From: Eubacteriales bacterium
GTDB lineage: Bacteria > Bacillota > Clostridia > Christensenellales > Aristaeellaceae
Length of the DNA stretch: 64,000 nucleotides
Assembly (NCBI GenBank): GCA_031556065.1
Contig: JAVBTR010000012.1
Location: 31 to 64,030 of the forward strand
Direction of reading: 5' to 3'
Position numbers and translations under genes: made by a program. Positions 33,575 through 49,304 of the stretch are shown here, piece by piece. Within the stretch, counting starts at the first letter, position 1. The number at the start of each line of letters is the position of its first letter. The notes below the pieces were generated by a model, which worked only from the letters and a program-made list of their open reading frames with translations, was not told the DNA's origin and ran no database searches.

Positions 33575-33579
33575 CACAC

Positions 33580-33654: not shown

Positions 33655-33662
33655 GAAAGAAT

Positions 33663-33688
33663 AAACCCGCTTGGTGCGGGTTTTTCTT
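33663..33688 (+). terminator. Rho-independent terminator after the five-tRNA cluster
   Basis: AAACCCGC-ttggt-GCGGGTTT followed by a T run. Confidence 0.7.
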
Positions 33689-33702
33689 TTCCTTTTTCTC
33701 TC

Positions 33703-33789
33703 GCTGCTGTGATGGAATAGGCAGACATAACAGACTTAAAATCTGTCGGTGGAAACACCGTGCCGGTTCGACCCCGGCCAGCAGCACCA
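33703..33789 (+). tRNA. tRNA-Leu(TAA), long variable arm
   Basis: The acceptor is GCTGCTG/CAGCAGC, the anticodon loop is CTTAAAA, and the variable arm is CGGTGGAAACACCG. CCA is encoded. A compound hairpin follows at 33798-33849. Confidence 0.85.
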
Positions 33790-33992
33790 AACCAATATAA
33801 TCCGAACCAATCCCGACAGATAATACCTGTTGGCGAAGGGTTCGGATTATTAGTTTATTTCGAGTATGGTTTCTTCCCTAATGGGGTAAAGCAAAGGGCG
33901 GAGTCAAAACCCAGAGGGCCGAGAAAAAAGAAAAGAACTGAATAGACAGAAAAAAGGGGCACTGGCATCATTGCGATACCAGTGCCCTGCTG

Positions 33993-34181
33993 TCAATTAT
34001 TCTTTTTCTTCTCTTTTCTAACCGTATCCATTTCTTGCTGCTGCTTCCACTCGGCAAATTCTTTTTGCCCTTCCTCGCTCTCGAAAAGAGCAAGAACATC
34101 GGGCATAATACAACGAGCGATGGCTTCAATTTTGTATTGTGGAATGTTGGTGTTGTTAATAATCTTCTTGCGCCGTCCCAT
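33993..34181 (-). CDS. Small island-backbone protein (62 aa), unknown function
   Basis: The start MGRRKKIINNTNIPQYKIEAIARCI follows GGAGG at 6 nt. A hairpin GGGCACTGG/CCAGTGCCC lies downstream of the stop. Confidence 0.5.
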   Translation of the reverse strand: MGRRKKIINNTNIPQYKIEAIARCIMPDVLALFESEEGQKEFAEWKQQQEMDTVRKEKKKNN

Positions 34182-34284
34182 GATTTTCCTCCGTATGTAG
34201 TTTTCAAGGTACAAAGTCTTGAAATCTCACTTTCATAAATATTGGGGTAATAAAAAACCACGCCTCATTTCTGATAGCGTGGAG

Positions 34285-35124
34285 CTAATGTTGCTCATAT
34301 TCGATAAACGCTTTCTTGATTGCGCTCATCCGTTTTAGTACACCGCTGTGATTCTTGTATCCCATCACGTTGGCGATTTGCTCATAGGTGAATCCTTGTA
34401 TTCGATAATCTAGTATCTCCATATCCCGTGGCAAGAGCTGCAATCTGAAGCGTCGATAGAAGTCATCGGCTACAACCTGTTCAACGAAGTGCGATGAAGG
34501 ATCAGCCAATGCATGGATTCCATTCCCGACATCTTCGATGCTGCCTTCCAATGATACCATCTGCACTTTTTTAGATCGGGTGTGATACCACTTGCGAAGG
34601 AAATCTTTGCGAACGTTGGTGTTCCAGTTTTCAAAATCTTCATCGCAAGGCATTTCCCGCACAACATCAAGCGTGGGTTGCCAGCCTTCTTCTTGAATGG
34701 CACGTTTTACGATTCGTCCCATTACTTCTTCAATGTAATCAGACGTGAAGAACGGAATGGTTTCAACGCTTGGAATATAGAAAAGCCGTTGCAAACCCCA
34801 CCCGGTTTCTGCCTCCAACAATCTTGCCCAAATAGGTAACATATAGCACAGCTTCCATACCGGGCAATAGCCTGTGTAATGTTCTTTCCAACCACTAAAG
34901 CCGAAGTGCGGAAAAACCATTGCCGCACTTGCATCGGTAATCTCGCTAAAGAAGGCATCGCTGTTCACGACTGCCATCATTTCTTCGGAGTACACTACTT
35001 CTCTCACTTTTCGTGGTAAAGAATAAAGCGTTGGGCACTTTTTAATTAAATCTTGCGGCAGGAAATATACTAATGGTAAATAAAGCAGATTGCTGTCTGC
35101 GGATATTTGCAATAAGCTCATCAT
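34285..35124 (-). CDS. Protein with a C-terminal sigma-70 region 4 / LuxR-like HTH
   Basis: The C-terminus is LLPRDMEILDYRIQGFTYEQIANVMGYKNHSGVLKRMSAIKKAF. AAGGAGG precedes the start. Confidence 0.6.
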   Translation of the reverse strand: MMSLLQISADSNLLYLPLVYFLPQDLIKKCPTLYSLPRKVREVVYSEEMMAVVNSDAFFSEITDASAAMVFPHFGFSGWKEHYTGYCPVWKLCYMLPIWARLLEAETGWGLQRLFYIPSVETIPFFTSDYIEEVMGRIVKRAIQEEGWQPTLDVVREMPCDEDFENWNTNVRKDFLRKWYHTRSKKVQMVSLEGSIEDVGNGIHALADPSSHFVEQVVADDFYRRFRLQLLPRDMEILDYRIQGFTYEQIANVMGYKNHSGVLKRMSAIKKAFIEYEQH

Positions 35125-35322
35125 TTCACCTCCTTAATTTTGAACTATACTTATATACGGCATAAATGCAAAGCAATTGTTCCAGATAGGCTGATTATAA
35201 CAAAATAAGCAATCAGAAACAAGCTGCTTTAATAGCACCCTTTGCATATTGTGCGAGTTGGAGAGTATTTGCAAGACACCTTCCAAGCATTTTCCTACAT
35301 GACACCTCGTGTATATTTTCTT

Positions 35323-35357
35323 TATTCGGTGCGAATTATGTAAAATTATGCTATAAT
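35323..35357 (+). promoter_or_regulatory. Candidate extended -10 promoter of the cargo operon
   Basis: TGcTATAAT, with the -10 at 35352-35357. The -35 is weak (TGCGAA). Confidence 0.35.
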
Positions 35358-35492
35358 GGCAAAGATAATAATTTGGCAGTCAGCAATTAATATAAGCTAT
35401 GCTGCTCGCAAGTTAATTGGAGAAACATTTCACACAACTACAGAGTGGTTATCAGCCAGAACATGCTTTGTTTCGAAAGGAGCCGAGACCAA

Positions 35493-36917
35493 ATGCGCAA
35501 GGCATATGATACGATTTTACGATCCGAAGTGTCTGCTGAGTTGGTTGCAGAAGGCGGCGTATTTGATGAACCTTATCGTTTTGAGTGTGCTTGTTGCGGC
35601 GAAGAAGTTCGAATTGCCGCTGCTGAAAGTACTAAACAGACGGTTCACTTCAGACATCGTAGTGGCAATAATGATACTGAATGCGAAAACTATTTGGGGA
35701 AAAATATGCAAATAAGTATTGATTCCGCATCAAAGAAAAGCAATCGTGAAAGATTGGAATTTTACTTTGTTTACAGCAACAAGAATTTTTGCATGGGATT
35801 AAAGTTTACTGAGCAGGAACTTATGAATTATGAACAATGCTCAGCTTTATTTACATTGAGTGTAAGCGAGACGCAAGAGGCTTTTCGCACTTTGGAAATA
35901 AACCGCACTAATTTTTTTCCGGACGCTATGGAGTTAATTCCGTTGGGAACGTTTTCACACAGTTACTATTTAACTAATACATATGATAAAACTTGGCGAA
36001 AATACGATTTTATTAACATAGAGAATACCCCTGCATTTTTTAAAGTTTTAGGTGATGTTGCCAATTTCAAGGCACGCCTTGTGCAGGGTGATGTTATATA
36101 TACAAACACAAAGTACTTTGTTACTTTTCAAAATCAATATTACGAAAATCATTTCAGGTCTTTTTCAGTTGAAGATAAGTTCACGTTTGAGACTATGGGA
36201 AAGCAATTTACAGGTATCATTATAAGTTTTCCCCAAAAAAGTGAACGAATTGATGCCTTGATTGCTCCATGGGGATATAGACTCGAAAGTTCTGATACTT
36301 TAACATTATTGTGGCCTCCGGCGTCATCCGATGGTGATACCTCTTATATTTCTGGAGACAACGCCTTTATATACTCCACGTTTCGATTGCAAGCTCATGG
36401 AAACATCAATGTTAATCCAAGTGATGTTGTCAATATTACCGCTAATCTGTCAAAAGTGCTAATTCGCTCTACGACAAAGGTTTTCAGGAGAAACGCAGAA
36501 CTTACAATAAGTAATTGTGCATTGCCACTGTGCGCATTGGATAAGTTGGATGTATCAGAGGACTTGGCTGATTGTTTTGTTGCAAATGCTGAAAGCACTT
36601 GCTTTAGCTTTACTTCAGCAGGGGTATTGCCGCTAGATGCGGCAGCTTGGTTTTATCTTACACCAGAAGACGTGGTGCGAAAATACCAACATGGCTATTT
36701 GATTGGAGAGGTAAAATACCCTCCACAATCTGCGCCGAAGAAAAAAGAGTTGCTAAACGATTTGCTAAAGCATTATAAGCTGAATGAGCCATTTGTCAAA
36801 ACGCGATTGAATATGATTTCAATTAGCGAAACAGTGTCAGAATATCTCCTTTCTTGCGAAGAATCAGCGCAAATCAACTCTGCTGCAAAACGCTTTATTG
36901 AGGAGGGACGTCTGTGA
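35493..36917 (+). CDS. Cargo gene 1: unknown protein with a CoiA-like Cys/His N-terminal motif
   Basis: A 474-aa protein with AAAGGAG 10 nt before the ATG. The N-terminus is FECACCGEEVRIAAAESTKQTVHFRHRSGNNDTECENY (C-x2-C ... HFxH ... C). I recognise no domain in the rest. Confidence 0.75.
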   Translation: MRKAYDTILRSEVSAELVAEGGVFDEPYRFECACCGEEVRIAAAESTKQTVHFRHRSGNNDTECENYLGKNMQISIDSASKKSNRERLEFYFVYSNKNFCMGLKFTEQELMNYEQCSALFTLSVSETQEAFRTLEINRTNFFPDAMELIPLGTFSHSYYLTNTYDKTWRKYDFINIENTPAFFKVLGDVANFKARLVQGDVIYTNTKYFVTFQNQYYENHFRSFSVEDKFTFETMGKQFTGIIISFPQKSERIDALIAPWGYRLESSDTLTLLWPPASSDGDTSYISGDNAFIYSTFRLQAHGNINVNPSDVVNITANLSKVLIRSTTKVFRRNAELTISNCALPLCALDKLDVSEDLADCFVANAESTCFSFTSAGVLPLDAAAWFYLTPEDVVRKYQHGYLIGEVKYPPQSAPKKKELLNDLLKHYKLNEPFVKTRLNMISISETVSEYLLSCEESAQINSAAKRFIEEGRL

Positions 36918-38872
36918 GCTATTTGCCTCTCTTGTCGGATGACGACATCCGTTTTGTTTGCTCAATAATTCCACATGAGGAAGTTATTCGCTATTTTTCA
37001 CGACATCCTAAAGACCTTGCTCAGATAAGGCCTGGCTTTCGGGCAAAGACGTTTAGCAAAAGTGATGTTAGCAAACTACTATTCAATTTCCAATCAAAAA
37101 ACTTTATACAGAACATTATCGAAAATTGGCTTGACTTTTGTCTGCGGGAAATAGAGAAATATTATAACAACTGCATAGCAGATGGTGATGACAAAGACGT
37201 GGCTCAATTAAAGACGCTATCCGGGTCTTTTTTCGCACCCAACATAGCTGTTTACTTTAAGCTTGTTGGAGAAGAACGTTCACAAAGGGAAATGGAGCTG
37301 CTTAGTGCATCTATTACGGCGATTCGAGAAAATAGCGAAAGCAACATAGTACAAAATCGAGAGCTAAAGTCAAAAGAAAAAGAGCTGCAACAAGAAAAGG
37401 ACAAGGCTGATGCACTTCATGAAAAATTGGAGAAGGCTACTGCAAGTCAACAAAGGAGAATTGCTGAAATTGTAGATCTCAAGCGTGAGTTAGCTGAACT
37501 TCATGATCTGAGGGGTAAAGTAGATAAGCAAAACAAAGATATCAGTTCGGCTAAAATGCTCGTAGAAGAAAAAGAAGCATGCATAGTCAAAATGAAACAA
37601 GAATTGAGTATATCTGCAAGTGAAATTGCAAATCTCAAAAGTGAACTCGGCAAAAATGCGATATTGCAGGCTGAAGTAATCGCCCTACGAAAAAAAGAGA
37701 GCTATATTACTCAACTTGAAGCGGATGTTATATTTTATCAAAATCAGAGTATGGATTGCGAAAAGCAACTTGAAAGGCTTTCGGACGATTTGGTTGAGTC
37801 ATCCAGTAAAATAACAAATCTCGAAGAAAAAGTTGCTGCAAACGCACAGCTTCAGGCTGAGATTTCTGAGCTGAGAAAATCTAAAGAGGGCATAACCGCC
37901 TTAAAAAGTGAACTGGAAAATTTAATTGAACGCAACAGAGTTTGCGAAGAACATGTGGAAAGACTAAAGATCGAGCTAGCGACTGCAATTTACAATGACG
38001 AGCAACGGCAAGAACAAGAAAAATCGTCTCGTGTCTTATCAAATGTAACATCCAGTGGAGCAATACATGTAGCACACAAACCACTAAAGCCGATCGAAAT
38101 GGCGCTCTTTACTGAGTATATTGGCTATAATCTTGAAAGCATAGGCATTCCAAGTGATGCAGAGGTGTTTAATTTGCTGATTAATCATTTGAGCAGAATT
38201 TGCTTTGGAGGAGTGCCGATTATCGCCAATCGCCTTACAGGTGCTGCTATCGCGAAATGTATTGCTAATGTGATTACAGGTGCGCCCGAAGTGAAAACAC
38301 TTCGGTATAAAAAAGAAATTTCCATTGAAGAAATCAGCGCTTTTTTTGAATCAAAAGAGCGGGTTGTTTGCCTTGACAATTTTGTTGGAAACTACAACGA
38401 AACAGAACTGCTACCCTTGTTTGAAGAGAATCGAAATAAAATTATTTTCCTGTTAACGGCTTATGATCGAACAGTAAATTATATATCAGAAGAATTTTTG
38501 CGTTACTGTCACTATTTAAACTTAAATCAACTCATTGCACGAATCCCTACGTTGGAGCTTTCTGAGGATTCCTCCACATTGGACGAGGGAGAATACTCTC
38601 CCGAAAGAACAGATGCAAACAATCGTTATGCAGACATAATGCGCAAAATTCTAAATGAAATCAATTACTGCAAAAGCATTATCGAAGAAAAATGCGCCGA
38701 GATTTCGAGTGAGCAAGAGTTGTGCGGATCATTAGCCTTTGATGTTTTACCATACTGTGTTGACGTGCTTCACATATCCCCATATAACAGTTCTGCACAC
38801 CTTGGCAGATATGCAGGAGTTGCGGGTAGATGTCCGCATCGCAAGTTGCTTAAGGAGTGGTTTGCGCTATGA
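36914..38872 (+). CDS. Cargo gene 2: long coiled-coil protein with a degenerate P-loop-like C-terminal domain
   Basis: The GTG start overlaps the upstream stop (GTGA). Residues about 135-370 are heptad-rich and E/K/L/Q-rich, with a duplicated unit of about 62 aa. The C-terminus carries VPIIANRLTGAAIAKC ... VVCLDNF ... IIFLLTAYD. Confidence 0.75.
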   Translation: MSYLPLLSDDDIRFVCSIIPHEEVIRYFSRHPKDLAQIRPGFRAKTFSKSDVSKLLFNFQSKNFIQNIIENWLDFCLREIEKYYNNCIADGDDKDVAQLKTLSGSFFAPNIAVYFKLVGEERSQREMELLSASITAIRENSESNIVQNRELKSKEKELQQEKDKADALHEKLEKATASQQRRIAEIVDLKRELAELHDLRGKVDKQNKDISSAKMLVEEKEACIVKMKQELSISASEIANLKSELGKNAILQAEVIALRKKESYITQLEADVIFYQNQSMDCEKQLERLSDDLVESSSKITNLEEKVAANAQLQAEISELRKSKEGITALKSELENLIERNRVCEEHVERLKIELATAIYNDEQRQEQEKSSRVLSNVTSSGAIHVAHKPLKPIEMALFTEYIGYNLESIGIPSDAEVFNLLINHLSRICFGGVPIIANRLTGAAIAKCIANVITGAPEVKTLRYKKEISIEEISAFFESKERVVCLDNFVGNYNETELLPLFEENRNKIIFLLTAYDRTVNYISEEFLRYCHYLNLNQLIARIPTLELSEDSSTLDEGEYSPERTDANNRYADIMRKILNEINYCKSIIEEKCAEISSEQELCGSLAFDVLPYCVDVLHISPYNSSAHLGRYAGVAGRCPHRKLLKEWFAL

Positions 38873-39888
38873 ATGAACTTTTAAAAGCAATGTCAACCGA
38901 TATGAGAATCAAACGTTATCAAAATGAAACGGAGGATTCGTTTGCCTATCGCTTATGCTATTCGGCTTTAGGACAATGGTGTTTACGGCTGGCGCAAAAC
39001 ACTTATGACGGTGCTATAGGCACTTCAAAGCATAGCCAAACCATTATACTTAACGAATTGATCGCAAGATTTATTGAGCTGTTTCCTTATCTTGAGGAAA
39101 AGCTTATCGATGGTAGCGGAAAGAATGATAGCATTTCTGTTCACATACGAAAAGTCTATGAAGAAACAGGTTATTTACTTACTTCTGATACCAACCGAAA
39201 CAGGATAGCTAACTACGGCAGAAGCATTGCTGTTGGACATGCAAATCTGTTTTTCGGACTCCCTTCATCGAGCTATACCGTAAATGGGTTGGGTGTATTA
39301 ACTCCTTCTCCTGCACACAACGTTACATCGAGGGAGTTTCTTATAAGGGACAATCTATCTTGGAAAAAATATTTTCAGGCACAGTTTGACAATGTTGAGT
39401 TTGGCGATAGAGATATCGATATTACGCAACTCGAATTTTTCGATCCACAGTCGCACAAATCTCCTTCGTCATCGTGGAGAAAGTCGATTACAACAAGCTG
39501 CACTATCGCACGAGGTGGCGAATTCGGCCCTTTCTATAAGGTGAAGCAGATGACCAATGGATCCTTTTTATTTGCTGACGAACCGATAATTACACAATCG
39601 GATGCTTTTACTTCGTATGAGTACAGACGCTTGTACTTTGCACTTAAGGCACAATACGGGGCTCCGCTTATTGCTTATATCAGTAGACACGATTCGGATT
39701 ATGCGACGGTTAGATTAAGCGGGCTCTTGCCCAATCGTGAATATTATTACATATTATTGCTGGCATGGCCTCAAAACACTTTTTATAACAAAGCAGGCTT
39801 TATTATTAGAACGGACTTATTGCCAGAACTATCAACGGTACTAATTAATCTAGGAATAAAGATAGAAAGCGAGGGCGCATATGCATAA
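38869..39888 (+). CDS. Cargo gene 3: unknown 339-aa protein
   Basis: It shares an ATGA overlap with gene 2. I recognise no motif. Confidence 0.7.
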
Positions 39889-42800
39889 TTCAAGCAGTGT
39901 TCAAGTGTACTATCAAACTATTCGTGATAGGTTGAAAAACTACATTAAATCGGACTATTTGGCTAATAGCGAAACGTTGCTTATGTATGTTGATGATCTA
40001 TTAGGAGAAAACTGCTCTCCATATGCCAACATTGCGCGTGAACCATATATCGAAACATCCGCTTCCTATAAAAAAATTCAAAACGGGATTGCAAACTCTC
40101 AGCTGATTGAAGATTCTATTAAAGAATCTCTGCTTAAGCTTGTTGAGGAGAAGCTTGGCGTTTTTGCTGATCCGTTTGAGCATCAGGTGCAAGCACTTGA
40201 ATATTTTTTGGCAGGACGAGATATGTTTGTATCAACTGGAACAGGTTCTGGCAAAACCGAATGCTTCTTGTGGCCTATTATAGCAAAATGCTTCGCTGAA
40301 GCAAAAACACACCCTAATAGTTTTAATAAAGAAGGCGTGCGGACTCTTATTATCTATCCTATGAACGCACTTGTATCTGATCAATTGGCTAGATTCAGAA
40401 AAATTATCGGTAGTGAAGAATTTAAAGATATCTTTACAGAAGATACATTGGCAACTCGCATTCCGCATTTCGGCATGTATACAGGCAGAACTCCTTACGC
40501 CGGAAAGCCAAAGACTGCCAGCAACAAAGAGCTGGCAGCTACATTTCGAGAAAGTTACCTGGTGGATGAGGAAGCGGATAATCAAACTCAAGAGCGACAA
40601 CGTAATAATATTAACGGATTGAAAAGTATCAATAAGTACCCAGCTAGATTTGGAGAAAACGGTCTTGAAAAATTTATTGATGATTTGGAACGGAACATAC
40701 ATAAACCAGCTTCTTTTGACGCTGAATTTATTACCAGATTCGAGATGCAAAGGTGTCCGCCGGATATACTGATAACGAACTATTCCATGCTGGAATATAT
40801 GCTCATGCGTCAACGCGAGACGGGTATTTGGGATAAGACAAAAGAGTGGCTTAACGAATCACAAGACAATCGTTTGCTTATTGTTTTGGATGAGGCACAT
40901 ATGTATCGGGGCGCTGCTGGTGGCGAAATAGCGTTGCTGTTAGAACGTTTATTCTATCGCCTTGGAATTTCACGAGACAAAGTCCAGTTCATCCTTACTA
41001 CTGCCAGTATGCCGCAAGATGATCAGAAAGCAATAGATGCATTTTACACTGGGCTTACGCAGAAAGAGCCTTCTCACTATGAATTCATTGATGGATCGAA
41101 AGAGGAAATTGCAAGTGAGGCTGAAATCAAAACCAATGTGGCTGCGCTGGCATCAGTTGGATCGGAACAGGTATATGGCGAGAGTATTGCCGAAAAAATA
41201 AGAGTTTTTTCGCACGCTGTTTTTGGACATATTCTTCCCGAAACCATCAGTTCAAAGCAGGCACAAGCTTGGTTATATGATAACCTCGCAAGATATGATG
41301 CATTTCTCCAATTGAATAAGGTGTGCCGTGACGGGGCTACGTCATACAGTGAAATAAAGAACAGGCTTTTTGGGGAGGCAACCGACTCTGAAGCCGCACT
41401 GGATGCTTTGTTAGCTATCGTAGCTCTTGCTGAGAAGAATGGTAACATCCTATTTCCTGTGCGTCTGCATATGTTTTTGAGAGGACTTCAGGGCCTATTT
41501 GCATGTTCAAACCCCAAATGCGTTCACGCAAAGTACTCGAGTGAAGAACAGCTGCCGCTAGGAAAGGTAACCTCAGTGCCACGAGATAAGTGTGAATGTG
41601 GTGCACGAGTTTATGAGCTTGTTAATCATATAAAATGCGGCGGACTTTATTTGCGCGTTTTTGTTCAAAAGAACGAAGGCAGTCCTTACTGGTATGTCTT
41701 TCCGCAAAAAGGAATAAGCGGAGATGTGAACTCACTTAATGAAATGCTTCTATACGTGGTTCCAAAGAACTATCAAAAAGGACGAAATGATAATATTGGC
41801 TCGCTTGATCCCTTAACAGGAAAATTGTACATTTCGCCCCAATCTGATGATAAATTACTAACAGTAATTTATAGCAATAACTTTGATACCAAGTTGCAGT
41901 CCTTTAATTTCAATGTATGCCCGAAGTGCAAAAAGAAAATGAGCTTAAAAAAGCCTGCCGACTTGGCAACGAAAGGCAATATTCCTTTCTACAATCTGAC
42001 AAAAGCGCAGTTTGAGTTGCAACCTCCCAAATCAAATCTAATTAATCAAGGAAAAAAGGTATTACTCTTCTCGGACTCGCGCCAAAACGCAGCGAAGCTT
42101 GCACTGGACTTGTCGAAATCATCAGATGCAGATGCTTTCCGCCAAGCAATCATACTAGCTTCTTTGCTCTTGCAAAATGATGAAAAGGAGCATACTTTAG
42201 CAGATATATATCCTGCTTTCTTAGAAGTGTGTATAGAAAACAAACTGAATTTTTTCAGTGGGATAAGTAACGAAAAATTCGTTCAAGACAAGAACCTCTT
42301 TGAGGGGCATAAGCGTCGCATGATGCGCCGTGGAAACGAGAATGATTCTTCGGAACTGGCAGCAAAATATCAATCGTTGCCCGATGAATATCACGAACAA
42401 CTATTGACCTTTTTTACAGAAAGCCCGCGATCTTTCAAAGACATTGGAATTGGTTTCTTGGCGCCGACGGTCAATGCGCTGGAAGATTGTAGTTTTGACT
42501 TGGAAGAAGACGGAATAGTCATAGACAAAGATATTCTTTATCAGCTTCTTGTTCTTCTTTTTTGGGATGTAATGGATGACAGTGCGGCCTTGGGTGAGAA
42601 TATCCCGGATGACATTCGAAAGGGATTACCCGGACGCAGTAAAGAACGTGAATTTGGGCTAAGCAGCACTTTCACAACAGCATTAGATAGCAAATTTCTT
42701 CAGCGGGGCAAGGAGATTCTTAATCTTAATAGCGATGCAATGTTGGAGAAAGTAATCAATAAGATACGTGATTTGTTTTTCTCGACATCACGAATAAGTC

Positions 42801-45115
42801 GTTATTACATTAAACTTGGGGCTGTAAAAATCGAGTTTGCAAACAAAGATTTTACGTGGTATCGTTGCTTAAAGTGTGGGAAACTATCGCCATTCAAAAT
42901 TGGCAACCATTGTGGGGCCTGTTTCGAATCAACGGATGTGAAGCCGATTGGAGAGGATGACCTCTCACGTTTTGATTTCTGGCGAAAACCAGTTTTGGAT
43001 GCATTGAATAAAAGTGTAAGCATCCATACAATTGATACTGAAGAACATACTGCGCAACTGTCGCACAAGGAAGTGCATAACGATGCTTGGAGTCGCACGG
43101 AAAAATATGAAATGCGGTTTCAAGATATTAGTGCTGGTGAAAATGGAGAGGAATCGATAGATGTGTTGAGTTGCACCACCACAATGGAGGTTGGTATCGA
43201 CATCGGTTCTTTGACAGCTGTCGGGCTTCGTAACATTCCGCCAATGCGAGAAAACTATCAACAGCGTGCAGGACGCGCAGGACGTAAGAATGCCGGAATT
43301 TCTACTATAGTAACTTATGCTTCCGGGGGTGTTCATGACAGCTATTATTTTTTGCACCCTGATGAAATGATATCTGGATCGCCTCGAAAACCGTGGATAG
43401 ATCGAGACAATCTCAAGATAAAGCAACGCCATATTAATATGTTGTCGTTGAACAAATTTTTATCTACGCCGAATATGAGTTGCCAGTTTGATGGCATCCT
43501 TGACATAGGCATTATTACATTCTGTGAAAAATATGGGCAGAACTTTATCGAATGTACCGAAGCTTTTGCAACAGAATCGGGATTTTCATCCGAAACAACA
43601 ATTCGTCAATTTGCTATGATATCTCGCGACGTTTTAGATGAAAGTAAGAGGAATGAATACATTAACAATGAAAAAGAAACATCTGCATTTGATGTGTTCT
43701 ATCGTGAAGGCTTTATTCCGTCATATTCATTCCCTAAAAATGTAGTACGCTTTTTTGTGGAAAAAGAGTCTTCTCGTGGTAAAAATGCTCCGCGGGATAT
43801 TCAGTATGCTCCTGACAGAGATATATCTGTTGCCCTTAGCGAGTATGCTCCGGGACGATTTGTGTGCATTGATAAGAAGACATACAAAAGCGGCGGCTTA
43901 TATGCTAATCCACGGCCGAAAGGTTTTGAAAAAAATCAAGCTGAATACTATTTTTCAAACAAAGAGTATTGTAAAGATATTTTCGTTTGCACAGAATGCA
44001 ATTGGTTTGGCTTGAAGGTAGAAGAAACGTCAAATATGGCTTGCCCGTACTGTGGTGCTGCTGTTGCAAAAAGCACCATGCTTCGCCCTTGGGGTTTTTC
44101 GGCAGTTAAAGGTGATGAGCAAAAGTACGAAGATGAAGATGAACAGTATACGTACGCAGAAGCCCCATTTTATTCATATGTACCGGATGATTATCCAAGA
44201 GATATTTTTGAAGGAAGCAATATTCATTATGCAAATCTCCCTGATAAAGACGTATTAACCGTTAACATGGGGAAAAGCAAAAATGGTTTTAATGTGTGCA
44301 GAAAATGTGGTGGCGCAGAAGTTAGAAATCCTAATTCAAATGGAGATTACTCATTTTCCCAGCCTTACCATGATCCCCATCTTTGTCGGCATGAAGGTAC
44401 TGTGTCGTCAGGAATTTACCTTGGATATCAGTTTTTAACCGATATGTTCATGTTGGATATTTCTTACGATTCAAACAAGCTGGTCGGTAATGCCAGTGTA
44501 GAAGAGAAAAGTATATTACGGTCGGCAGCGACTACCTTGCATGAAGCATTAAAAAAAGCTGTTTCATTAGTTTTGGATATAGATTACAATGAAATTGCAG
44601 GCGGTTGGCGACCTAGAATAAAGAGCGATGGTTCATCACACATTGAAATGTTCTTTTATGACAACCTTATTAGCGGTGCTGGCTACTCGTCGCTAATTGG
44701 TTCTATTCTTGAAAAGGTGCTTGATAGCGCAAAAACGATTTTATCTGAATGTGAATGTTCACGTTCATGCAAAAACTGCATCGATAATTATTGGAATCAG
44801 CGAAACCATCAATTGTTTGATAGAAAGTTGGGGCTCCAGTTGCTTGAATATGCACGTTACAAACAGTTGCCCAACCGCTATTCCGTTGAGGAGCAGAAGG
44901 TATATCTTGCACCATTGTGGAAATTAATATCAGAGGACGGCAGTACGGTAAAGTCTGATCATCAAATTGATTTTGAAGTTATTCCTGCGCTTTTGAAAAA
45001 GCCTGAAAGCACAAAGATCAAAATCTATTTGAATCCCTACGATTTGTCGGACTGGCTTCCGAATGCGTTTATGACGTATAGAAGTCTTGTTTCTGGAGGA
45101 ACGTCAAATGGCTAA
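39881..45115 (+). CDS. Cargo gene 4: 1744-aa DEAH-box SF2 helicase fused to a DUF1998/MrfA-type zinc-binding C-terminal domain (DruE-like)
   Basis: Motif I is GTGSGKT (40238-40258), motif II is DEAH (40889-40900) and motif III is TTAS. Motif IV is [11 protein letters not shown] (from 42056), motif V is [11 protein letters not shown] and motif VI is [10 protein letters not shown] (43259-43288). The DUF1998 hallmarks are SEYAPGRFV and [25 protein letters not shown] (Cys cluster at 44750-44779). Confidence 0.9.
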
Positions 45116-45947
45116 ATCACTTTCACCGCTTCGATATCCAGGCGGCAAGTCAAAGATATACGAAAAGGTGAAAAACTTAATAGAGATTAATGCTTTTGGA
45201 AACAGGACCTATGTTGAACCTTTTGCGGGAGGGTTTGGTATTGGTATTGGACTACTTTGCGATAATACTGTGCAAACGGCAGTTCTCAACGATTTTGATA
45301 CACATATTTATAATTTTTGGTATGCTATATTGCACCACACCGAAGAGTTGAACAGGTTGATAACTGAAACGCCAATTACACTGGACGAACGTGAGAATCA
45401 AAAGCATGTTTATGAAGCCGAGGTTGATGATGCCCTTGCTGATGGGTTTGCCACATTGTTTCTTAATCGTGTTAATTTCTCAGGTGTATTTAATGGCGGT
45501 CCTATTGGTGGCTATTCGCAGACTGGAACATATAGACTTGATTGCCGCTTTAACAAAAATGATATTATTAAGCGGATTGAACAGGTTGCCCTACTTGCTA
45601 ATCGCATTGATTTATACAATTTAGAGGCGAGCGAACTGATTACTGTCCAATTGCAAAATACGATTAGAACGTCTTTTTTCAATATCGATCCGCCATATGT
45701 CGAAAAGGGACAGCGATTGTATAAAAATTATTTCCTTGAAGAAGACCATCGAGCACTTGAACGGATAATTGCTCAGTACTTGATAGATACACGATGGATT
45801 GTAACGTATGATGATTGCGAGCTGGTAAGAGATATCTATAGCGCTTATACGACTGTTGGGTATGATATTCAACACAATGTTGGTGCTAGTAAAAATGGCA
45901 AAGAGATCGTGATAACAAACATTCCTGTTGATACGTTTAGCTGGTAA
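45108..45947 (+). CDS. Cargo gene 5: Dam-class (D12, alpha-type) N6-adenine DNA methyltransferase
   Basis: LRYPGGKSK, an AdoMet motif [10 protein letters not shown], and the catalytic DPPY (45687-45698). The start has GGAGGA 7 nt upstream and overlaps the helicase gene stop by 8 nt. Confidence 0.88.
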
Positions 45948-46008
45948 CATAAATGATCGAGGCTACTATCATTGGGTGATGAATAGTTTCACATTGCGAA
46001 AACAACAT

Positions 46009-46312
46009 ACAATACTGGCAAGCAGGGCAAGTGGCATGCCACATTGCAAAACTGCTTGTTGGTGACAGCGTCCCCAAACCCCTTTGAACATAGAATTGAT
46101 TTCTATGGCTACGCACTTTTTTCAAAAGTACTACATCTTCGGGTTGAATTTTTCGCTCAAGTTTTGCTTTTTGCTCTCGGCAAATGAATAGCACTTTTGA
46201 AAAAAGTGCGTAGCCGCAAAATGAAATTTTGCGTTTGATTAGGGGTTTGGGGCTTTGCCTCAACAAGCAAAATGCAAAAGTGTCATAACACTTGCCCTGC
46301 TTGCCAGTATTG
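46009..46312. repeat. About 300-bp imperfect inverted duplication (two arms of about 135 bp)
   Basis: The outer 23 bp are perfect (CAATACTGGCAAGCAGGGCAAGTG vs CACTTGCCCTGCTTGCCAGTATTG). Further matching blocks are CCCCAAACCCCT/AGGGGTTTGGGG and GGCTACGCACTTTTTTCAAAAGT/ACTTTTGAAAAAAGTGCGTAGCC. Each arm also has its own small hairpins. Confidence 0.8.
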
Positions 46313-46322
46313 AACCAACTAT

Positions 46323-46360
46323 GAAAAAAGCCCACACGATTTTGCATTCGTGCGGGCTTT
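46323..46360 (-). terminator. Rho-independent terminator after tnpV (minus strand)
   Basis: AAGCCCGCACG-loop-CGTGTGGGCT followed by TTTTTT on the minus strand. Confidence 0.7.
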
Positions 46361-46363
46361 CCA

Positions 46364-46717
46364 TTATGCGTAGACGATTTCTTTTAGAATAATTTCTTCG
46401 GCGCAAGACTTGATGTTGTTCATTGCACCGACCCATGCCATTTGATCTTTTGCCTTTAACTCTTCGGTGATGCCTTGAATTTTTTGCATCTGTTGAATCG
46501 TGTTTGAAAGTTGTTCGTTGGCTTGCCGATCGGTTTCAACAAGATGCTCATGCAACTTGAAGGATAAAAACAAAGTGGCGTAGATGACTGGGCGATGATC
46601 TTCGAGATACTTTTTGCGAAGCCTTCCGTATTTACCGATAGGGGTTGTATTTTGCTCAGGAAAGATAAAATCAGGGACGAGATAGTCACCGTTTTGAATG
46701 TAGCTGATTTTATTCAT
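46364..46717 (-). CDS. tnpV: TnpV-family transposon-associated protein
   Basis: NGDYLVPDFIFPEQ...IGKYGRLRKKYLEDHRPVIY...GITEELKAKDQMAWVGAMNNIKSCAEEIILKEIVYA matches my recollection of the TnpV family. Confidence 0.75.
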   Translation of the reverse strand: MNKISYIQNGDYLVPDFIFPEQNTTPIGKYGRLRKKYLEDHRPVIYATLFLSFKLHEHLVETDRQANEQLSNTIQQMQKIQGITEELKAKDQMAWVGAMNNIKSCAEEIILKEIVYA

Positions 46718-47000
46718 AATCGTTTACCACCTCTCCGCAATTGTTAAACGTTTCTGACATGAGCATGACACCGAAACGGAGCCCGTAGGTAAATTTTTGA
46801 TATTGTGTTATGCCGTCAATTTCAGCTTGGGCGTCGTTGAATTTCTGAAATATTACTTTCTCATTTTCGTTCAGCGTTAAAAGTAATTCTTTGCGGTTAT
46901 TCTCCCGTAGCTGTACAAGTTGAACGTAGGGTGAATTTTGATCGTAGACTTTACCGTCTGCACGAATATTGCCGTAATAGAGCTCCTCTAAAATCTTCAT
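46710..47000 (-). CDS. Island-backbone hypothetical protein (DUF6809-like, usual neighbour of tnpV)
   Basis: It has an MKILEELYYGNI N-terminus and overlaps the tnpV start. Confidence 0.6.
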   Translation of the reverse strand: MKILEELYYGNIRADGKVYDQNSPYVQLVQLRENNRKELLLTLNENEKVIFQKFNDAQAEIDGITQYQKFTYGLRFGVMLMSETFNNCGEVVNDYE

Positions 47001-47141
47001 AAAAGTTTCCTTTCTTCTTGTGAGTGCGACAATGCTTGAAAGGAACTTAGGCGCATGATATAATATTTACGCCGTAATTGCCTTGGCAGTTGTCGGTGTC
47101 GGGAAGTAGCGTGATTCTTTGCGGGAGAGCGCTGCTTCCTT

Positions 47142-47303
47142 TTACTTTTTCAGATCGCCGTAAATACGATCAATCCCTTGGCGAATAATCTCTGATTTTG
47201 TGACCTTGAACGTTTCGCTACATTCCTTGAGCTTCTCGTCTGTTTGAACATCAATCCTAATTCTCAGAGAAATATCCTTGGGACTTTCGGTTGGGCGACC
47301 CAT
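47142..47303 (-). CDS. Small ribbon-helix-helix (CopG/MobC-like) protein, absent from the supplied ORF track
   Basis: My manual translation is MGRPTESPKDISLRIRIDVQTDEKLKECSETFKVTKSEIIRQGIDRIYGDLKK (53 aa). An alternative TTG start at 47318 lies just after GAGGTGA. Confidence 0.6.
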   Translation of the reverse strand: MGRPTESPKDISLRIRIDVQTDEKLKECSETFKVTKSEIIRQGIDRIYGDLKK

Positions 47304-47399
47304 CTTTTTGGCAGGCAAGTCATCACCTCACTTTTGTATCGCCAAATCTATTGTACATTATGGATACACAAAAGTCAACCACCAAAACCTTAAATGGGG

Positions 47400-47428
47400 T
47401 TGAAAATAGTCAAATTATGGGTTAAAAT
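47400..47428 (+). promoter_or_regulatory. Candidate promoter for the XRE-recombinase pair
   Basis: TTGAAA (47400-47405), a 17-nt spacer, then TAAAAT (47423-47428). Confidence 0.4.
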
Positions 47429-47457
47429 AAATTCAACAAACTAGGAGGTGCTCACTA

Positions 47458-47817
47458 ATGAAAGAAGTGGGGATACGTTTGAAAACTTTGCGTGAAAGCG
47501 CAATGCTTTCGCAAGCGAAGATGGCAGAGATTTTTGAATCTACCCAATCCAGTATCAACCGTTATGAAAATGGACAATCGACCCCGACTGTTGCGCTATT
47601 TCGTGCATATGCAAATTACTTCGATGTGTCTATGGATTATATATTTGCTCGAACCGATAAGCCCCAAGGCGAGTTGTACGAATACAAGCCGAATATCGCT
47701 ACTGATAATCCTCAGATGCGCCAGTTTATTGATATGTGTTTTGATCCCAACTCACCCGTGAGCGGGAAGTTGAAAGATACATTGTTGCAGATGATGAAAG
47801 GCGATGAGAAAAAATGA
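47458..47817 (+). CDS. XRE-family HTH regulator
   Basis: IRLKTLRESAMLSQAKMAEIFESTQSSINRYENGQSTP. AGGAGG lies upstream, and the gene overlaps the recombinase start (ATGA). Confidence 0.8.
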   Translation: MKEVGIRLKTLRESAMLSQAKMAEIFESTQSSINRYENGQSTPTVALFRAYANYFDVSMDYIFARTDKPQGELYEYKPNIATDNPQMRQFIDMCFDPNSPVSGKLKDTLLQMMKGDEKK

Positions 47818-49304
47818 AAGCAGTCATCTATGCACGCTATTCCTCCGATAGCCAGCGTGAAGAATCCATCGAAGGACAGCTCCGTGAATGTGCCGCCTTT
47901 GCTGAAAAGAACGGCATTACTATCTTGCGAAATTATATTGACCGTGCTTTCTCTGCCAAGACGGACAACCGCCCGGAGTTCCAAAACATGATTAAGGATA
48001 GCGGCAAAAAGTTATTTGATATGGTCATTGTTTGGAAGTTGGATCGCTTTGCACGCAATCGCTATGACAGTGCAAGATACAAATCCATCTTAAAGAAAAA
48101 TGGTGTGAAGGTTGTGTCTGCCACCGAAGTCATTTCTGACGGTGCAGAAGGCATTATTCTGGAATCGGTTCTTGAAGGCTATGCGGAATACTATTCTGCT
48201 GATCTATCCGAGAAGGTCATTCGCGGCATGACCGAGAACGCCTTGAAGGGCAAGTTCAATGGTGGTTCACTTCCGATAGGATATGTGATTGACGAGGAAC
48301 GACATTTTCAAATCGATCCATTGACCGCACCTTTTATCTTAGAAGCGTATAAGCGATATGACGAAGGGGGAACCATGACCAACATCCGAGATTGGCTAAA
48401 TGCAAAAGGCGTTACCAACAAGTTCGGTGGGGGCTTAACCTATAATAGCGTTCAATTGTTGTTGCACAATCGCCGTTACATTGGTGAGTTCAAATATAGA
48501 GATATTCTCTTGCCCAGTGCCATCCCTGCCATCGTGCCAAAAGAATTGTTTGACCGTGTACAAGCGAAGATGGAGAAAAACAAAAAAGCCCCAGCCCGTC
48601 ATAAGGCTGAGGACGATTATCTGCTAACAACGAAACTTTTCTGCGGTCATTGTGGGGCATATCTATGTGGAGAAAGCGGGACGGGGCGCTCTCATGTATA
48701 TCATTATTATAAGTGCGTCAATGTTAAAAAGAGCAAAACCTGCAAAAAGAAACCAGTTCAAAAAGACTGGATAGAAAACTTGGTTATTGACGAAACGGTG
48801 AATATGATCACAGATGACAAGACGGTTGAAGCCATCGTTTCAATGGTGATGGATTTGCAAGAGCGTGAAAATACAAGTTTGCCGCTATTTGAACAGCAAT
48901 TGCAGGACACCAACTTCGGCATTCAAAACATCCTCAACGCCATTCAGCAGGGTATCTTGACCAAATCCACCAAGAGCCGCCTTGATGAGCTGGAAGCGGT
49001 CAAAGAAGATTTGGAAATCAAGATTGCCAACGAAAGCCTTGCCAAGCCCAAGCTAAATGCAGATTTCGTGAAGTTTTGGCTACGCCGATTCCGCAAACTG
49101 GATACACGAAAGAAAGAGCATAGAATGATGTTGATTGATTCGTTTGTTAATGCGATCTTTCTCTATGACGATAAAGTGGTTATTACATTCAATTATAAGG
49201 ATGGCACGAAAACAATCACCCTTGGTGATGTAAAAGGTTCGGATTTGGAATGCTCTGGGGCACCATCAAGAGTTATCAAACTCAATACAAAGAGGTCTTC
49301 GTGA
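47814..49304 (+). CDS. Large serine recombinase
   Basis: The resolvase catalytic N-terminus is MKAVIYARYSSDSQ...WKLDRFARN. A recombinase domain and a zinc ribbon (CGHCGAYL...YHYYKC) follow, then a C-terminal coiled coil. Confidence 0.92.
   Translation: MKAVIYARYSSDSQREESIEGQLRECAAFAEKNGITILRNYIDRAFSAKTDNRPEFQNMIKDSGKKLFDMVIVWKLDRFARNRYDSARYKSILKKNGVKVVSATEVISDGAEGIILESVLEGYAEYYSADLSEKVIRGMTENALKGKFNGGSLPIGYVIDEERHFQIDPLTAPFILEAYKRYDEGGTMTNIRDWLNAKGVTNKFGGGLTYNSVQLLLHNRRYIGEFKYRDILLPSAIPAIVPKELFDRVQAKMEKNKKAPARHKAEDDYLLTTKLFCGHCGAYLCGESGTGRSHVYHYYKCVNVKKSKTCKKKPVQKDWIENLVIDETVNMITDDKTVEAIVSMVMDLQERENTSLPLFEQQLQDTNFGIQNILNAIQQGILTKSTKSRLDELEAVKEDLEIKIANESLAKPKLNADFVKFWLRRFRKLDTRKKEHRMMLIDSFVNAIFLYDDKVVITFNYKDGTKTITLGDVKGSDLECSGAPSRVIKLNTKRSS

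Follow-up and report, generated by a model that had tools for sequence, protein, structure and literature searches.

We identified an open reading frame of 1744 amino acids in the window, the 64,000-nucleotide stretch of DNA analyzed here, which very probably encodes DruE, the type I-class Druantia helicase, with the accessory domains that are standard in the family and a predicted ATP-driven 3'-5' mode of action. The initial annotation had described the protein as a helicase with very large insertions and several zinc-ribbon-like clusters, and considered this combination as not previously described. This does not hold in the light of a full-length match to the DruE1 profile, a collinear DruE in Ralstonia, matches to the structures 9TU7 and 9WAE, and the domain map of Bell et al. 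2025. As judged from the sequence comparisons, the large insertions and the zinc-binding cysteine clusters are the standard DruE architecture, which has already been published. The outcome of the check is negative in that the apparent novelty is removed: the helicase belongs to a well-populated family for which models already exist, and the zinc-module architecture of this family has been described bioinformatically and, for a sister type, determined by cryo-EM.

Helicase core and family membership

The gene and the segments of its helicase core are located as follows.

39881..45115, + strand: druE, Druantia signature gene of the type I class, encoding a 1744-aa SF2/MZB helicase with an ATG start
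40238..41008, + strand: RecA1 core, with motif I GTGSGKT at 40238-40258 (aa 120-126)
40889-40900, + strand: RecA1 motif II DEAH (aa 337-340)
40997-41008, + strand: RecA1 motif III TTAS (aa 373-376)
42056..42085, + strand: motif IV region, first RecA2 segment (aa 726-735)
43175..43288, + strand: motifs V and VI, second RecA2 segment (aa 1099-1109 and 1127-1136)

Membership in the DruE family is demonstrated by the PADLOC profile DruE1 (PDLC00013), which matched the protein with 1955.7 bits and aligned residues 2-1737 to positions 2-1774 of 1776, while the scores were 664 bits for DruE2, 342-543 bits for DruE3, 603 bits for DruE4, 69 bits for DpdJ, and 40 bits for DrmA. More than 7500 homologs were retrieved, the best 120 of which are 1697-1747 amino acids long and 71-79% identical to the window DruE at a query coverage of 97-100%. 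A profile of the family searched against the PDB matched the DruE structures 9TU7 (E 6.9e-178) and 9WAE (E 1.3e-157) and the MrfA structure 6ZNP (E 5.3e-33). The Pfam matches comprise DEAD, ResIII, Helicase_C, and MZB, and the YjiV_N domain (precomputed Pfam) covers the insertion region. The MZB match agrees with the initial assignment to the SF2 helicases of the DUF1998/MZB type, for which DruE had also been correctly picked as the comparison set.

The helicase motifs, all of which had been recorded as intact, were located in the open reading frame at 39881-45115, and the residues of motifs I-VI are invariant in a family alignment of 55 sequences with a mean identity of about 31%, including F730, S731, D732, and R734 of motif IV. 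The motif V-VI region, in which residues 1101-1150 are 99% conserved among the 120 close homologs, can be aligned with MrfA (6ZNP) as well as with the DruE structures 9TU7 and 9WAE.

Insertions and accessory domains

The two RecA lobes had been reported to be split by insertions of about 350 and 370 amino acids, and the measured spacing is indeed 349 amino acids between motifs III and IV and 363 amino acids between motifs IV and V. A third insertion, inside RecA1 (about residues 205-285), had been overlooked. The accessory domains are given below.

About aa 205-285, + strand: type I RecA1 insertion of ~80 aa, between motifs I and II
41021..41440, + strand: helical domain after RecA1 (about aa 381-520, boundaries approximate), corresponding to the BrxA-like, WH, or five-helix domain
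41504..41929, + strand: double zinc-binding beta-barrel (dZBD or beta-barrel ZBM) with sites 1 and 2, between RecA1 and RecA2
42158..42922, + strand: RecA2 helical insertion (about aa 760-985), the putative duplex-binding or MarR-like domain, ending in the zinc ribbon of site 3
43988..44392, + strand: OB-fold region with two zinc inserts (OBZ), sites 4 and 5
44540..44782, + strand: MZB/DUF1998 domain with site 6 (Pfam PF09369, 50.1 bits at a cut-off of 24.2, aa 1554-1634)
44801..45112, + strand: C-terminal domain of ~105 aa, at the position taken by the PLD nuclease domains in type III DruE

The predicted order of the accessory domains is a BrxA-like/WH domain, the double-zinc barrel, and the RecA2 insertion, followed by an extended winged helix, the OB region with its two zinc inserts, and the MZB domain. 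This published order was recovered in the alignments to 9TU7, 9WAE, and the canonical type I DruE with the ligands in register, which demonstrates that the domains are collinear. In the Druantia helicases as described by Bell et al. 2025 (PMC12458937), a BrxA-like domain is accompanied by two RecA2 inserts, namely a beta-barrel ZBM and a MarR-like domain that carries a zinc module, and by DUF1998 and an OB region containing two zinc modules. The helical domain after RecA1 is named in the same study and in the 2026 cryo-EM preprints as a BrxA-like, WH, or five-helix domain, a ZBM near the C-terminus is usual in MarR-like domains (Bell et al. 2025), and the RecA1 insertion of type I is classified as an HTH insertion (Bell et al. 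2025). Further published domain maps and functions of DruE also agree (10.64898/2026.05.12.722862, 10.64898/2026.05.13.724313).

The RecA1 insertion has no counterpart in the type III-A structure 9TU7, where residues 174-283 of the query correspond to residues 172-208 of the chain. The OBZ region aligns to residues 1360-1724 of 9TU7 and the MZB domain to residues 675-731 of MrfA. The alignment to 9TU7 stops at chain residue ~1724, ahead of the PLD domains, and the PLD region is absent because the window DruE ends about 110 amino acids after the MZB domain. The C-terminal domain contains no recognizable nuclease motif and no conserved acidic or histidine residues in a profile of 26 homologs, and a search with this profile of the last ~110 amino acids against the PDB and Pfam gave no significant match. 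An inactivated Vsr-like fold has been predicted for the C-terminus of type I DruE (Bell et al. 2025).

Structures were predicted with AlphaFold2 for residues 1-1200 and 1137-1744, each from an alignment of 39 sequences that was too shallow (71-80% identity), and the models reached a mean pLDDT of 63.9 and 59.2, respectively. Neither the RecA2 core nor the OB/zinc region was modelled with confidence, and the model is unreliable for the OBZ region. The models contain helices at 382-514 in the domain after RecA1 (pLDDT about 75-90), beta strands at 564-664 in the double zinc-binding beta-barrel, helices at 734-966 in the RecA2 insertion (pLDDT 75-92), and a confident small alpha/beta fold in the C-terminal domain (pLDDT 85-93). 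Foldseek searches with both models against a PDB library to 2026-04-08 gave MrfA as the top match together with generic DEAD-box proteins only, and no DruE match.

Predicted metal sites

The cysteine clusters quoted in the initial annotation all exist, including those at 42866-42922 and 44750-44779, but they form six sites rather than five, and two spacers had been given one residue too long, as the motifs are CLKCG-x10-CGAC, not x11, and CTEC-x14-CPYC, not x15. Site 1 comprises C542, C547, C571, and C573. Site 2 consists of H583, C586, C680, and C683, where the half-site CPKCKKK is partnered by HIKC. Site 3 (42866-42922) is formed by C996, C999, C1011, and C1014, site 4 by C1370, C1373, C1388, and C1391, and site 5 by C1473, C1476, and C1502 plus H1504. 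Site 6, in the MZB domain (44750-44779), contains C1624, C1626, C1630, and C1633.

The conservation of the ligands is demonstrated at two distances. The 22 cluster cysteines are 100% conserved in the 120 close homologs, and among 98 full-length representatives with 30-40% identity their conservation is still 97-100%, with 99-100% for site 3 and 97-99% for the MZB cysteines in these distant representatives. The 13 cysteines outside the clusters are present in the same 30-40% identity set at 83% for C1098 in motif V and at 1-44% for the other 12. In the alignment of these distant representatives, 97 of the 99 rows carry H, D, or C at position 583, all of which are metal ligands. Position 1504 is occupied by H in 30 and by G in 25 of the 55 sequences in the family alignment.

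Sites 1 and 2 align with CSNKQC...CDC, CSGC, and CVCC in 9TU7 and with CVDPQC...CSC, HRDC, and CPVC in the canonical type I DruE, and site 3 aligns with CSNC...CTRC in 9WAE and CQDC...CLAC in the canonical type I protein. Since the clusters are in register with those of the DruE relatives and with the published zinc modules, the insertions and clusters are standard in DruE, which is the very observation that the initial annotation had named beforehand as speaking against its reading.

Operon and genomic context

The gene is located in an operon with the order druB, druC-like gene, druD, druE, and Dam-like methyltransferase gene, in a clade that mostly consists of Bacillota.

35445..36917, + strand: druB, longest open reading frame 490 aa, full-length match to PADLOC DruB1 (PDLC00003, 540.6 bits)
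36914..38872, + strand: gene in the druC position, 652 aa, coiled coil, not matched by the PADLOC DruC profiles
38857..39888, + strand: druD, longest open reading frame 343 aa (339 aa from 38869), full-length match to PADLOC DruD1 (PDLC00008, 463.4 bits)
45108..45947, + strand: D12-class (Dam-like) N6-adenine DNA methyltransferase, 279 aa

The gene call for druB on the identical contig starts at 35493 and yields 474 amino acids. The upstream genes are joined by overlapping stop and start codons, and druD overlaps the start of druE by 8 nucleotides. The ATG of the methyltransferase gene overlaps the stop codon of druE (ATGGCTAA) and is preceded by GGAGG. The methyltransferase was matched by Pfam MethyltransfD12 (74 bits) and PADLOC PD-Lambda-5_B (326 bits), and its DPPY and FAGG motifs are invariant in all 50 homologs. 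For the protein in the druC position, the best PADLOC and NCBIfam matches are weak hits to SMC, JetC, and LmuB coiled coils, with an E-value of 0.44 for DruC1, while a homolog occupies the same place in 49 related loci.

The Druantia locus is situated within a low-GC mobile island with TnpV and a serine recombinase. The island gave no megablast match to any of the complete E. coli genomes, so that the locus is distinct from the type I system of E. coli. An HMM for DruA (DUF4338, Pfam PF14236), built from five DruA proteins that it recovers at 559-713 bits, gave zero matches in the 64-kb window and in 62 related loci, and DruA was also not found in the flanking open reading frames by Pfam and PADLOC scans.

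Comparison with related systems

The closest comparison is the canonical type I DruE of Ralstonia solanacearum UW163, encoded in a PADLOC-complete DruABCDE locus on plasmid pUW163a (NZ_CP012941.1, 25868-31423). The two proteins share 32% identity, are collinear along the entire helicase, and have the six Cys/His sites in register; their full-length DruE1 scores are 1956 bits for the window DruE and 2300 bits for the pUW163a DruE. They share the RecA1 insertion, a short C-terminal domain free of nuclease motifs, and genes of the DruB and DruD classes upstream, while the lengths of 1744 and 1851 amino acids differ by about 100 residues. However, the operon in the window lacks DruA, ends with the Dam-like methyltransferase, and encodes a protein in the druC position that is not recognizably homologous. 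The best PADLOC sub-models also differ, being PDLC00003 versus 00005 for DruB and 00008 versus 00009 for DruD. Comparison of the clade and canonical profiles with hhalign showed no similarity for DruC (probability 0.5%), a 50-aa N-terminal motif for DruB (76%), and a weak C-terminal stretch for DruD (40%).

The type III-A DruE from E. coli EDL933/ATCC 8739 (PDB 9TU7-9TUC) has the same domain order from the SF2 core to the MZB domain, and the cysteine clusters of its dZBD, OBZ, and MZB domains align with those of the window DruE. It is a protein of 2108 amino acids with two C-terminal PLD nuclease domains, a dimerization domain in the DBD, and DruH as a partner. Its cryo-EM structures contain five zinc-binding motifs (Himpich et al. 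2026, 10.64898/2026.05.13.724758), none of which is reported at the end of the DBD, and it has no RecA1 insertion. The window DruE thus differs by a sixth zinc ribbon (C996-C1014), the RecA1 insertion, and the lack of both PLD domains and DruH.

It is improbable that the locus instead represents another defense system of the YprA family, that is, Druantia type II, III, or IV, ARMADA, BRIGADE, TALON, DISARM, or Dpd. The architecture of BrxA-like, beta-barrel ZBM, MarR-like, and OB-ZBM modules is common to all of these systems, and ARMADA ArmC, DISARM DrmA/DrmB, and Dpd DpdJ share both ancestry and the multi-ZBM architecture with the window DruE (Bell et al. 2025). The missing DruA and the presence of a methyltransferase also recall type II Druantia, DISARM, and ARMADA, the last two of which combine a helicase with a DNA methyltransferase for self-marking. 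However, the DruE1 score is three times higher than those for DruE2, DruE3, and DruE4 and about 30 times higher than those for DpdJ or DrmA, and the neighbors are DruB1 and DruD1. The partners in ARMADA, DISARM, and Dpd are a PglX-like methylase, the BrxHII helicase, and PLD or Vsr nucleases, whereas neither these partners nor DruH or DruM/F/G were found by Pfam or PADLOC in the scanned proteins of the operon and its flanks. The methyltransferase of the window is not PglX-like but a small Dam-like enzyme of the D12 class, and the helicase has no C-terminal PLD and no recognizable active Vsr nuclease.

Still less probable is a decaying Druantia remnant on a mobile element that has lost DruA, in which DruC has diverged and the helicase is no longer defensive. 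While the absent DruA, the unmatched DruC profile, and the position on an island with TnpV and a serine recombinase would fit such decay, no helicase motif and none of the 24 predicted metal-ligand positions (22 Cys, H583, and H1504) has been lost. The conservation of the operon is, moreover, demonstrated by the recurrence of the five-gene arrangement with overlapping frames in 45-50 species-level genomes, which span Bacillota, Bacteroidota, Spirochaetota, Thermotogota, and Deltaproteobacteria. DruE is 60-79% identical across these genomes, a signature of purifying selection on a functional module that spreads horizontally.

The repair helicase MrfA/YprA of Bacillus subtilis (6ZNP) has the SF2 core and the MZB Cys4 in common with the window DruE, and sequence matches are limited to RecA1, motifs II-III, motifs V-VI, and the MZB domain. 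The accessory parts absent from MrfA are the BrxA-like domain, the zinc barrel, the helical insertion in RecA2, the zinc inserts of the OB region, and the C-terminal domain. MrfA had been estimated to be roughly half the size, in agreement with 751 amino acids in 6ZNP versus 1744, which leaves about 1000 amino acids of extra domains in the window DruE relative to the ~750-aa MrfA. Its partner is the exonuclease MrfB, and it acts in mitomycin-C repair rather than in a defense operon. The initial reading of a stand-alone MrfA/YprA-type repair helicase with lineage-specific, undescribed insertions and zinc ribbons has a negligible probability and is ruled out by the alignments: the kinship with MrfA in the SF2 core and MZB domain is real (E 3.2e-17 by sequence, E 5.3e-33 by profile, and the top Foldseek match), but the insertions occur collinearly in the canonical type I DruE, in the DruE structures, and in about 100 representatives that are 30-40% identical, druE belongs to a conserved druB-druD operon on a low-GC mobile island with no adjoining MrfB exonuclease, and the DruE architecture is already in print (Bell et al. 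2025; Himpich et al. 2026).

Proposed mechanism

By homology with MrfA and with the characterized type III DruE, which is only about 25-30% identical, the window DruE would load onto single-stranded DNA and move in the 3' to 5' direction driven by ATP; type III is the only DruE for which ATP-dependent 3'-5' unwinding has been demonstrated (Himpich et al. 2026). The double-zinc barrel and the helical insertion may together form a platform that receives the duplex, and one or two of the zinc modules may be in direct contact with the DNA. The earlier suggestion that the zinc-ribbon-like modules handle nucleic acids is plausible by analogy, as one of the two ZBMs in the OBZ of type III-A DruE touches the displaced strand (Himpich et al. 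2026). Unlike type III DruE, the window DruE contains neither PLD domains nor a recognizable active nuclease, so that the effector step would have to come from DruB, DruC, DruD, or factors of the host. Most likely, the m6A methyltransferase coupled to druE labels the host DNA as self. Within type I Druantia, DruABCDE of E. coli is so far the only system that has been tested for phage resistance (Ojima 2024).

DruA-less loci and the methyltransferase

Of the 54 species-level loci, 45 have the D12 methyltransferase gene directly downstream of druE, and another five have it within 8 kb (50/54). DruA is absent from the loci in the clade of the window, and none of the ten DruA-positive loci contains a D12 methyltransferase. 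The two states map to two clades, so that the pattern may go back to a single evolutionary event or simply to the neighborhood of a defense island. It is possible, but we suggest it only tentatively, that the locus represents a distinct and widespread DruA-less subtype of type I Druantia with the Dam-like D12 methyltransferase as a core, translationally coupled component.

No similarity was detected between the DruA profile and the PDB, nor between DruA and the D12 methyltransferase with hhalign; if DruA is a functional replacement, it is thus not a detectable homolog. The appearance of a new m6A motif in the host DNA has been attributed to type I Druantia (Ojima 2024), and the canonical DruABCDE system has been reported to install an m6A mark without a recognizable methylase. 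If the locus does represent such a subtype, m6A self-marking would be general to type I Druantia, and DruA would correspond to the methyltransferase in function, as the modification or specificity module. The compact Bacillota variant with its explicit Dam-like methyltransferase would provide a handle on type I Druantia as a methylation-gated, helicase-driven restriction system. The coupled methyltransferase may also have a bearing on the m6A methylase of type I Druantia.

The helicase gene encodes a type I DruE

The helicase gene is a single uninterrupted ORF, and the SF2 motifs that the initial annotation had considered intact were all located in its translation, between residues 120 and 1136.

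The druE ORF and its helicase motifs
39881-45115, + strand: druE, uninterrupted ORF of 1744 codons
Residues 120-126: motif I, GTGSGKT
Residues 337-340: motif II, DEAH
Residues 373-376: motif III, TTAS
Residues 726-735: motif IV-like element
Residues 1099-1109: motif V
Residues 1127-1136: motif VI

The spacing between motifs III and IV is 349 aa and that between motifs IV and V is 363 aa, in agreement with the insertions of about 350 and 370 aa reported around motif IV. The protein matches the Pfam families DEAD, ResIII, Helicase_C and MZB (the DUF1998 domain), and the PADLOC profile DruE1, which represents the type I Druantia helicase, aligns to residues 2-1737 (profile positions 2-1774 of 1776) with 1955.7 bits, as compared to 664 bits for DruE2, 543 for DruE3, 603 for DruE4, 69 for DpdJ and 40 for DrmA. 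These profile searches settle the identity of the protein, which by its sequence is a DruE of the type I class and thus a further member of a known family. There are more than 7500 homologues in a large protein collection, and the best 120 of these are all 1697-1747 aa long, with a query coverage of 97-100%. According to the precomputed annotation of the homologues, the recent Pfam family YjiV_N spans part of the "insertion" region.

Conserved cysteines form six predicted metal sites

The protein contains 35 cysteines, 22 of which are located in clusters. The cysteine strings quoted in the initial annotation are all present where it had placed them, except that two of the spacers were off by one and should read CLKCG-x10-CGAC and CTEC-x14-CPYC. 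Conservation was assessed in a close alignment of DruE with its 120 closest cluster representatives (71-79% identity), in a distant alignment of 98 full-length sequences, each representing a 50%-identity cluster and 30-40% identical to the query, and in a third alignment of 55 sequences that included three annotated plasmid DruE proteins. Among the 98 distant representatives, conservation is 97-100% for the 22 cluster cysteines, 83% for C1098 in motif V and only 1-44% for the remaining 12 cysteines; the 55-sequence alignment agrees with this pattern. When the half-sites were paired by a search for conserved partner residues, the "at least five" clusters first counted, correct as a minimum, became six predicted sites.

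Predicted metal sites in DruE
Site 1: C542/C547/C571/C573, conserved Cys columns
Site 2: H583/C586/C680/C683, with H, D or C in column 583, all of them metal ligands
Site 3: C996/C999/C1011/C1014, conserved Cys columns
Site 4: C1370/C1373/C1388/C1391, conserved Cys columns
Site 5: C1473/C1476/C1502, with H1504 in about half of the family
Site 6: C1624/C1626/C1630/C1633, the MZB site

The insertions and clusters are standard in DruE

The initial annotation had presented this combination of insertions and Cys clusters as undescribed, and had set an alignment with DruE proteins as the test that could refute it. A tblastn search identified full-length relatives with about 31% identity on plasmids, in neighborhoods where the annotated genes include "Druantia anti-phage system protein DruA". 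On plasmid pUW163a of Ralstonia solanacearum, PADLOC recognizes all five proteins, DruA-DruE, with a DruE1 score of 2300 bits. This canonical type I DruE is collinear with the window protein in BLASTP at 32% identity, and every cluster is in register.

Cluster pairs in the BLASTP alignment (window protein/pUW163a DruE)
CSNPKC/CVDPQC
CEC/CSC
HIKC/HRDC
CPKC/CPVC
CLKC...CGAC/CQDC...CLAC
CTEC...CPYC/CEAC...CPVC
CRKCGG/CGRCG

A phmmer search against the PDB returned 9WAE (1970 aa) and 9TU7 (2108 aa), both large helicases of the DruE type, followed by MrfA/YprA (6ZNP), and with the family profile the E-values were 6.9e-178 for 9TU7 and 1.3e-157 for 9WAE. In residue alignments, the clusters of the double zinc-binding domain (dZBD), the OB fold and the MZB domain match those of 9TU7, and the C996-C1014 ribbon pairs with 9WAE. 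For the Druantia/ARMADA lineage, Bell et al. 2025 (PMC12458937) describe a BrxA-like domain that follows RecA1, a β-barrel "zinc-binding module" that has two or more CxxC pairs and is inserted where RecA2 begins, and an adjoining MarR-like domain, where a further zinc module is usual. They also describe the DUF1998 cluster and, for every Druantia type, two OB-region inserts that carry zinc; type I additionally has an HTH inserted into RecA1 and a Vsr-like C-terminus that is inactivated. The 9TU7 structure, a type III-A DruE, comprises eleven domains. Of its five zinc-binding motifs, the dZBD and the OB/zinc domain each carry two, one of which contacts DNA, and the MZB domain carries the fifth (Himpich et al. 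2026, 10.64898/2026.05.13.724758). Concordant DruE structures are reported in two more 2026 preprints (10.64898/2026.05.12.722862, 10.64898/2026.05.13.724313). The canonical type I alignment, the solved structures and these descriptions together demonstrate that the multi-zinc, insertion-rich architecture of DruE is already known, both predicted and solved, and that the insertions are not peculiar to the window protein.

Domain map of DruE (approximate boundaries, from alignments and the confident parts of the AlphaFold2 models)
1-60: N-terminal region
61-380: RecA1, with the type I insertion at about 205-285
381-520: helical BrxA-like/WH domain
525-700: double-zinc β-barrel
700-760: first RecA2 segment, carrying motif IV
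760-985: helical duplex-binding/MarR-like domain
990-1020: zinc ribbon
1025-1190: second RecA2 segment, carrying motifs V and VI
1190-1280: extended winged helix
1280-1545: OB fold with two zinc inserts
1546-1640: connector/MZB
1641-1744: small C-terminal domain

Compared to the type III-A DruE, the window protein has an additional insertion in RecA1 and a sixth zinc ribbon but lacks the PLD nuclease domains, since the chain stops about 110 aa past the MZB domain. The profile of the C-terminal domain had no match in the PDB or Pfam, and the domain has no conserved acidic or His residues, which is compatible with an inactive remnant; the Vsr-like fold is predicted for type I by Bell et al. 2025. 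AlphaFold2 models of residues 1-1200 and 1137-1744, built from shallow alignments of close homologues, had mean pLDDT values of 63.9 and 59.2 and did not resolve the fold of either the core of RecA2 or the OB/zinc part of the chain. A Foldseek search of these models against the PDB (to April 2026) placed MrfA at the top, followed by generic DEAD-box proteins, with no DruE entries among the matches.

The protein belongs to the DruE family, is collinear with characterized DruE proteins, has invariant ATPase motifs and metal ligands, and is encoded in a conserved operon. By analogy with the biochemistry of MrfA and type III DruE, it would translocate 3'-to-5' on single-stranded DNA, driven by ATP, and unwind the duplex. 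The zinc barrel and the helical insertion would serve as the platform for duplex entry, the OB/zinc and MZB domains would form a lid over the RecA tunnel, and unwinding would require the MZB domain. The zinc sites may be mainly structural, with one or two in contact with DNA. DruE contains no recognizable nuclease, and the effector step must therefore reside in DruB, DruC, DruD or host factors.

Most loci of this DruA-less clade have a methyltransferase gene

The three genes directly upstream of druE have overlapping stop and start codons, and a methyltransferase gene follows directly at its 3' end.

Genes of the Druantia operon flanking druE
Directly upstream operon: druB, PADLOC DruB1 541 bits
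36914-38872, + strand: gene in the DruC position, 652 aa, coiled coil, no match to any DruC profile
Directly upstream operon: druD, PADLOC DruD1 463 bits
45108-45947, + strand: D12-class, Dam-like methyltransferase, 279 aa

The start of the methyltransferase gene overlaps the druE stop codon (ATGGCTAA) and is preceded by GGAGG, and the gene, for a predicted m6A methyltransferase, is thus read as translationally coupled to druE. Its product scores 74 bits with Pfam MethyltransfD12 and 326 bits with PADLOC PD-Lambda-5_B. We surveyed the clade in 58 loci from species-representative genomes, mostly Bacillota with scattered Bacteroidota, Spirochaetes, Kosmotogales and Deltaproteobacteria. Among the 54 loci that include the 3' end of druE, the methyltransferase gene is located directly downstream on the same strand in 45 and elsewhere within 8 kb in five, and is absent from four. 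The DPPY and FAGG motifs are invariant in all 50 homologues. The identities to the window methyltransferase in related loci (L002-L062) fall into two groups, of about 36-43% and 52-71%, which suggests swapping or diversification of the methyltransferase specificity.

The DruA HMM scored 559-713 bits in five canonical plasmid loci but recovered no DruA from the window or from the other loci of the clade. Conversely, none of ten DruA-positive loci (five plasmid and five viral-contig) contained a D12 methyltransferase. Strict membership in the five-gene type I thus fails on DruA, and the DruC-position gene, which matches no DruC profile, is at most a candidate druC; the locus is therefore best called a DruA-less, methyltransferase-bearing variant of type I. 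No description of such a variant was found in the literature searched, where one 2026 preprint states loosely that types I and II "contain methyltransferase accessory modules".

The DruA/methyltransferase pattern is the only part of the finding worth pursuing. The DruABCDE system of E. coli is reported to generate a new m6A motif, for which "the gene responsible ... has yet to be identified" (Ojima et al. 2024). The complementary distribution of DruA and the D12 methyltransferase suggests m6A self-marking as an inherent trait of type I Druantia, in which DruA would act as the functional counterpart of the methyltransferase. The two proteins showed no homology in an hhalign comparison. Alternatively, the pattern may represent a single evolutionary event, as the two states coincide with two clades. 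Defense islands also often place unrelated systems side by side. The D12 gene at druE may also bear on the m6A mark reported for the E. coli system.

An intermediate clade, whose DruE proteins share 36-38% identity with the query, lacks both DruA and the D12 methyltransferase. In the two of its loci examined, both on viral contigs (L069, 1-1955; L071, 2463-4525), a complete type II restriction-modification pair, consisting of a C5 cytosine methylase and an EcoO109I-like or Eco47II-like endonuclease, is located immediately upstream of the druB-like gene. The druC-like gene in these loci encodes about 920 aa.

Operon divergence and spread to archaea

The DruC-position protein has only weak coiled-coil similarity of the SMC/JetC/LmuB type; in most relatives it is about 527 aa long, and only the C-terminal 370 residues or so are shared with the window version. 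In L002-L062, DruE is far more conserved than its operon partners, with identities to the window operon of 60-79% for DruE, 26-50% for DruB, 26-52% for the DruC-like protein and 37-59% for DruD. Relatedness between the canonical and Bacillota-clade DruB, DruC and DruD is barely or not detectable, although DruE is collinear.

Full-length type I DruE homologues are also present on three haloarchaeal plasmids (30-31% identity, 99% coverage). In the one whose annotation was read, that of Haloplanus sp. GDY1, a 705-aa DruA is encoded on the opposite strand, with only two genes between it and DruE. These homologues and the Haloplanus DruA place type I Druantia, as judged from sequence, in archaea as well.

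The operon is carried by a low-GC island

The Druantia operon is cargo of an island of about 15 kb (within 33256-49304) with a GC content of about 40%, compared to about 50% in the flanks. The left edge is located directly past the his operon and six tRNA genes, and the right end encodes TnpV, DUF6809, an HTH_3 protein and a large serine recombinase. Its flanks yielded no convincing direct repeats.

Other features of the island and its left flank
33256-33789: tRNA genes for Val, Asp, Phe, Gly, Cys and Leu, directly before the island
34285-35124, - strand: ORF of 279 aa, divergent from druB
46010-46312: nested imperfect palindrome of about 300 nt, with 52-nt and 47-nt arm pairs
47814-49304: large serine recombinase

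The 279-aa ORF at the left edge has no match in Pfam, PADLOC or NCBIfam, and the gene tables of three related loci (L002-L004) show no counterpart of it upstream of druB. The palindrome is located between the methyltransferase and TnpV genes, inside a called minus-strand ORF of 136 aa without a family match, and it has no match in Rfam. Folded as single-stranded DNA, it reaches -96 kcal/mol, compared to -44 +/- 4 for shuffled sequences (z = -12.7), and it may serve the mobile element as an origin or a site of recombination.
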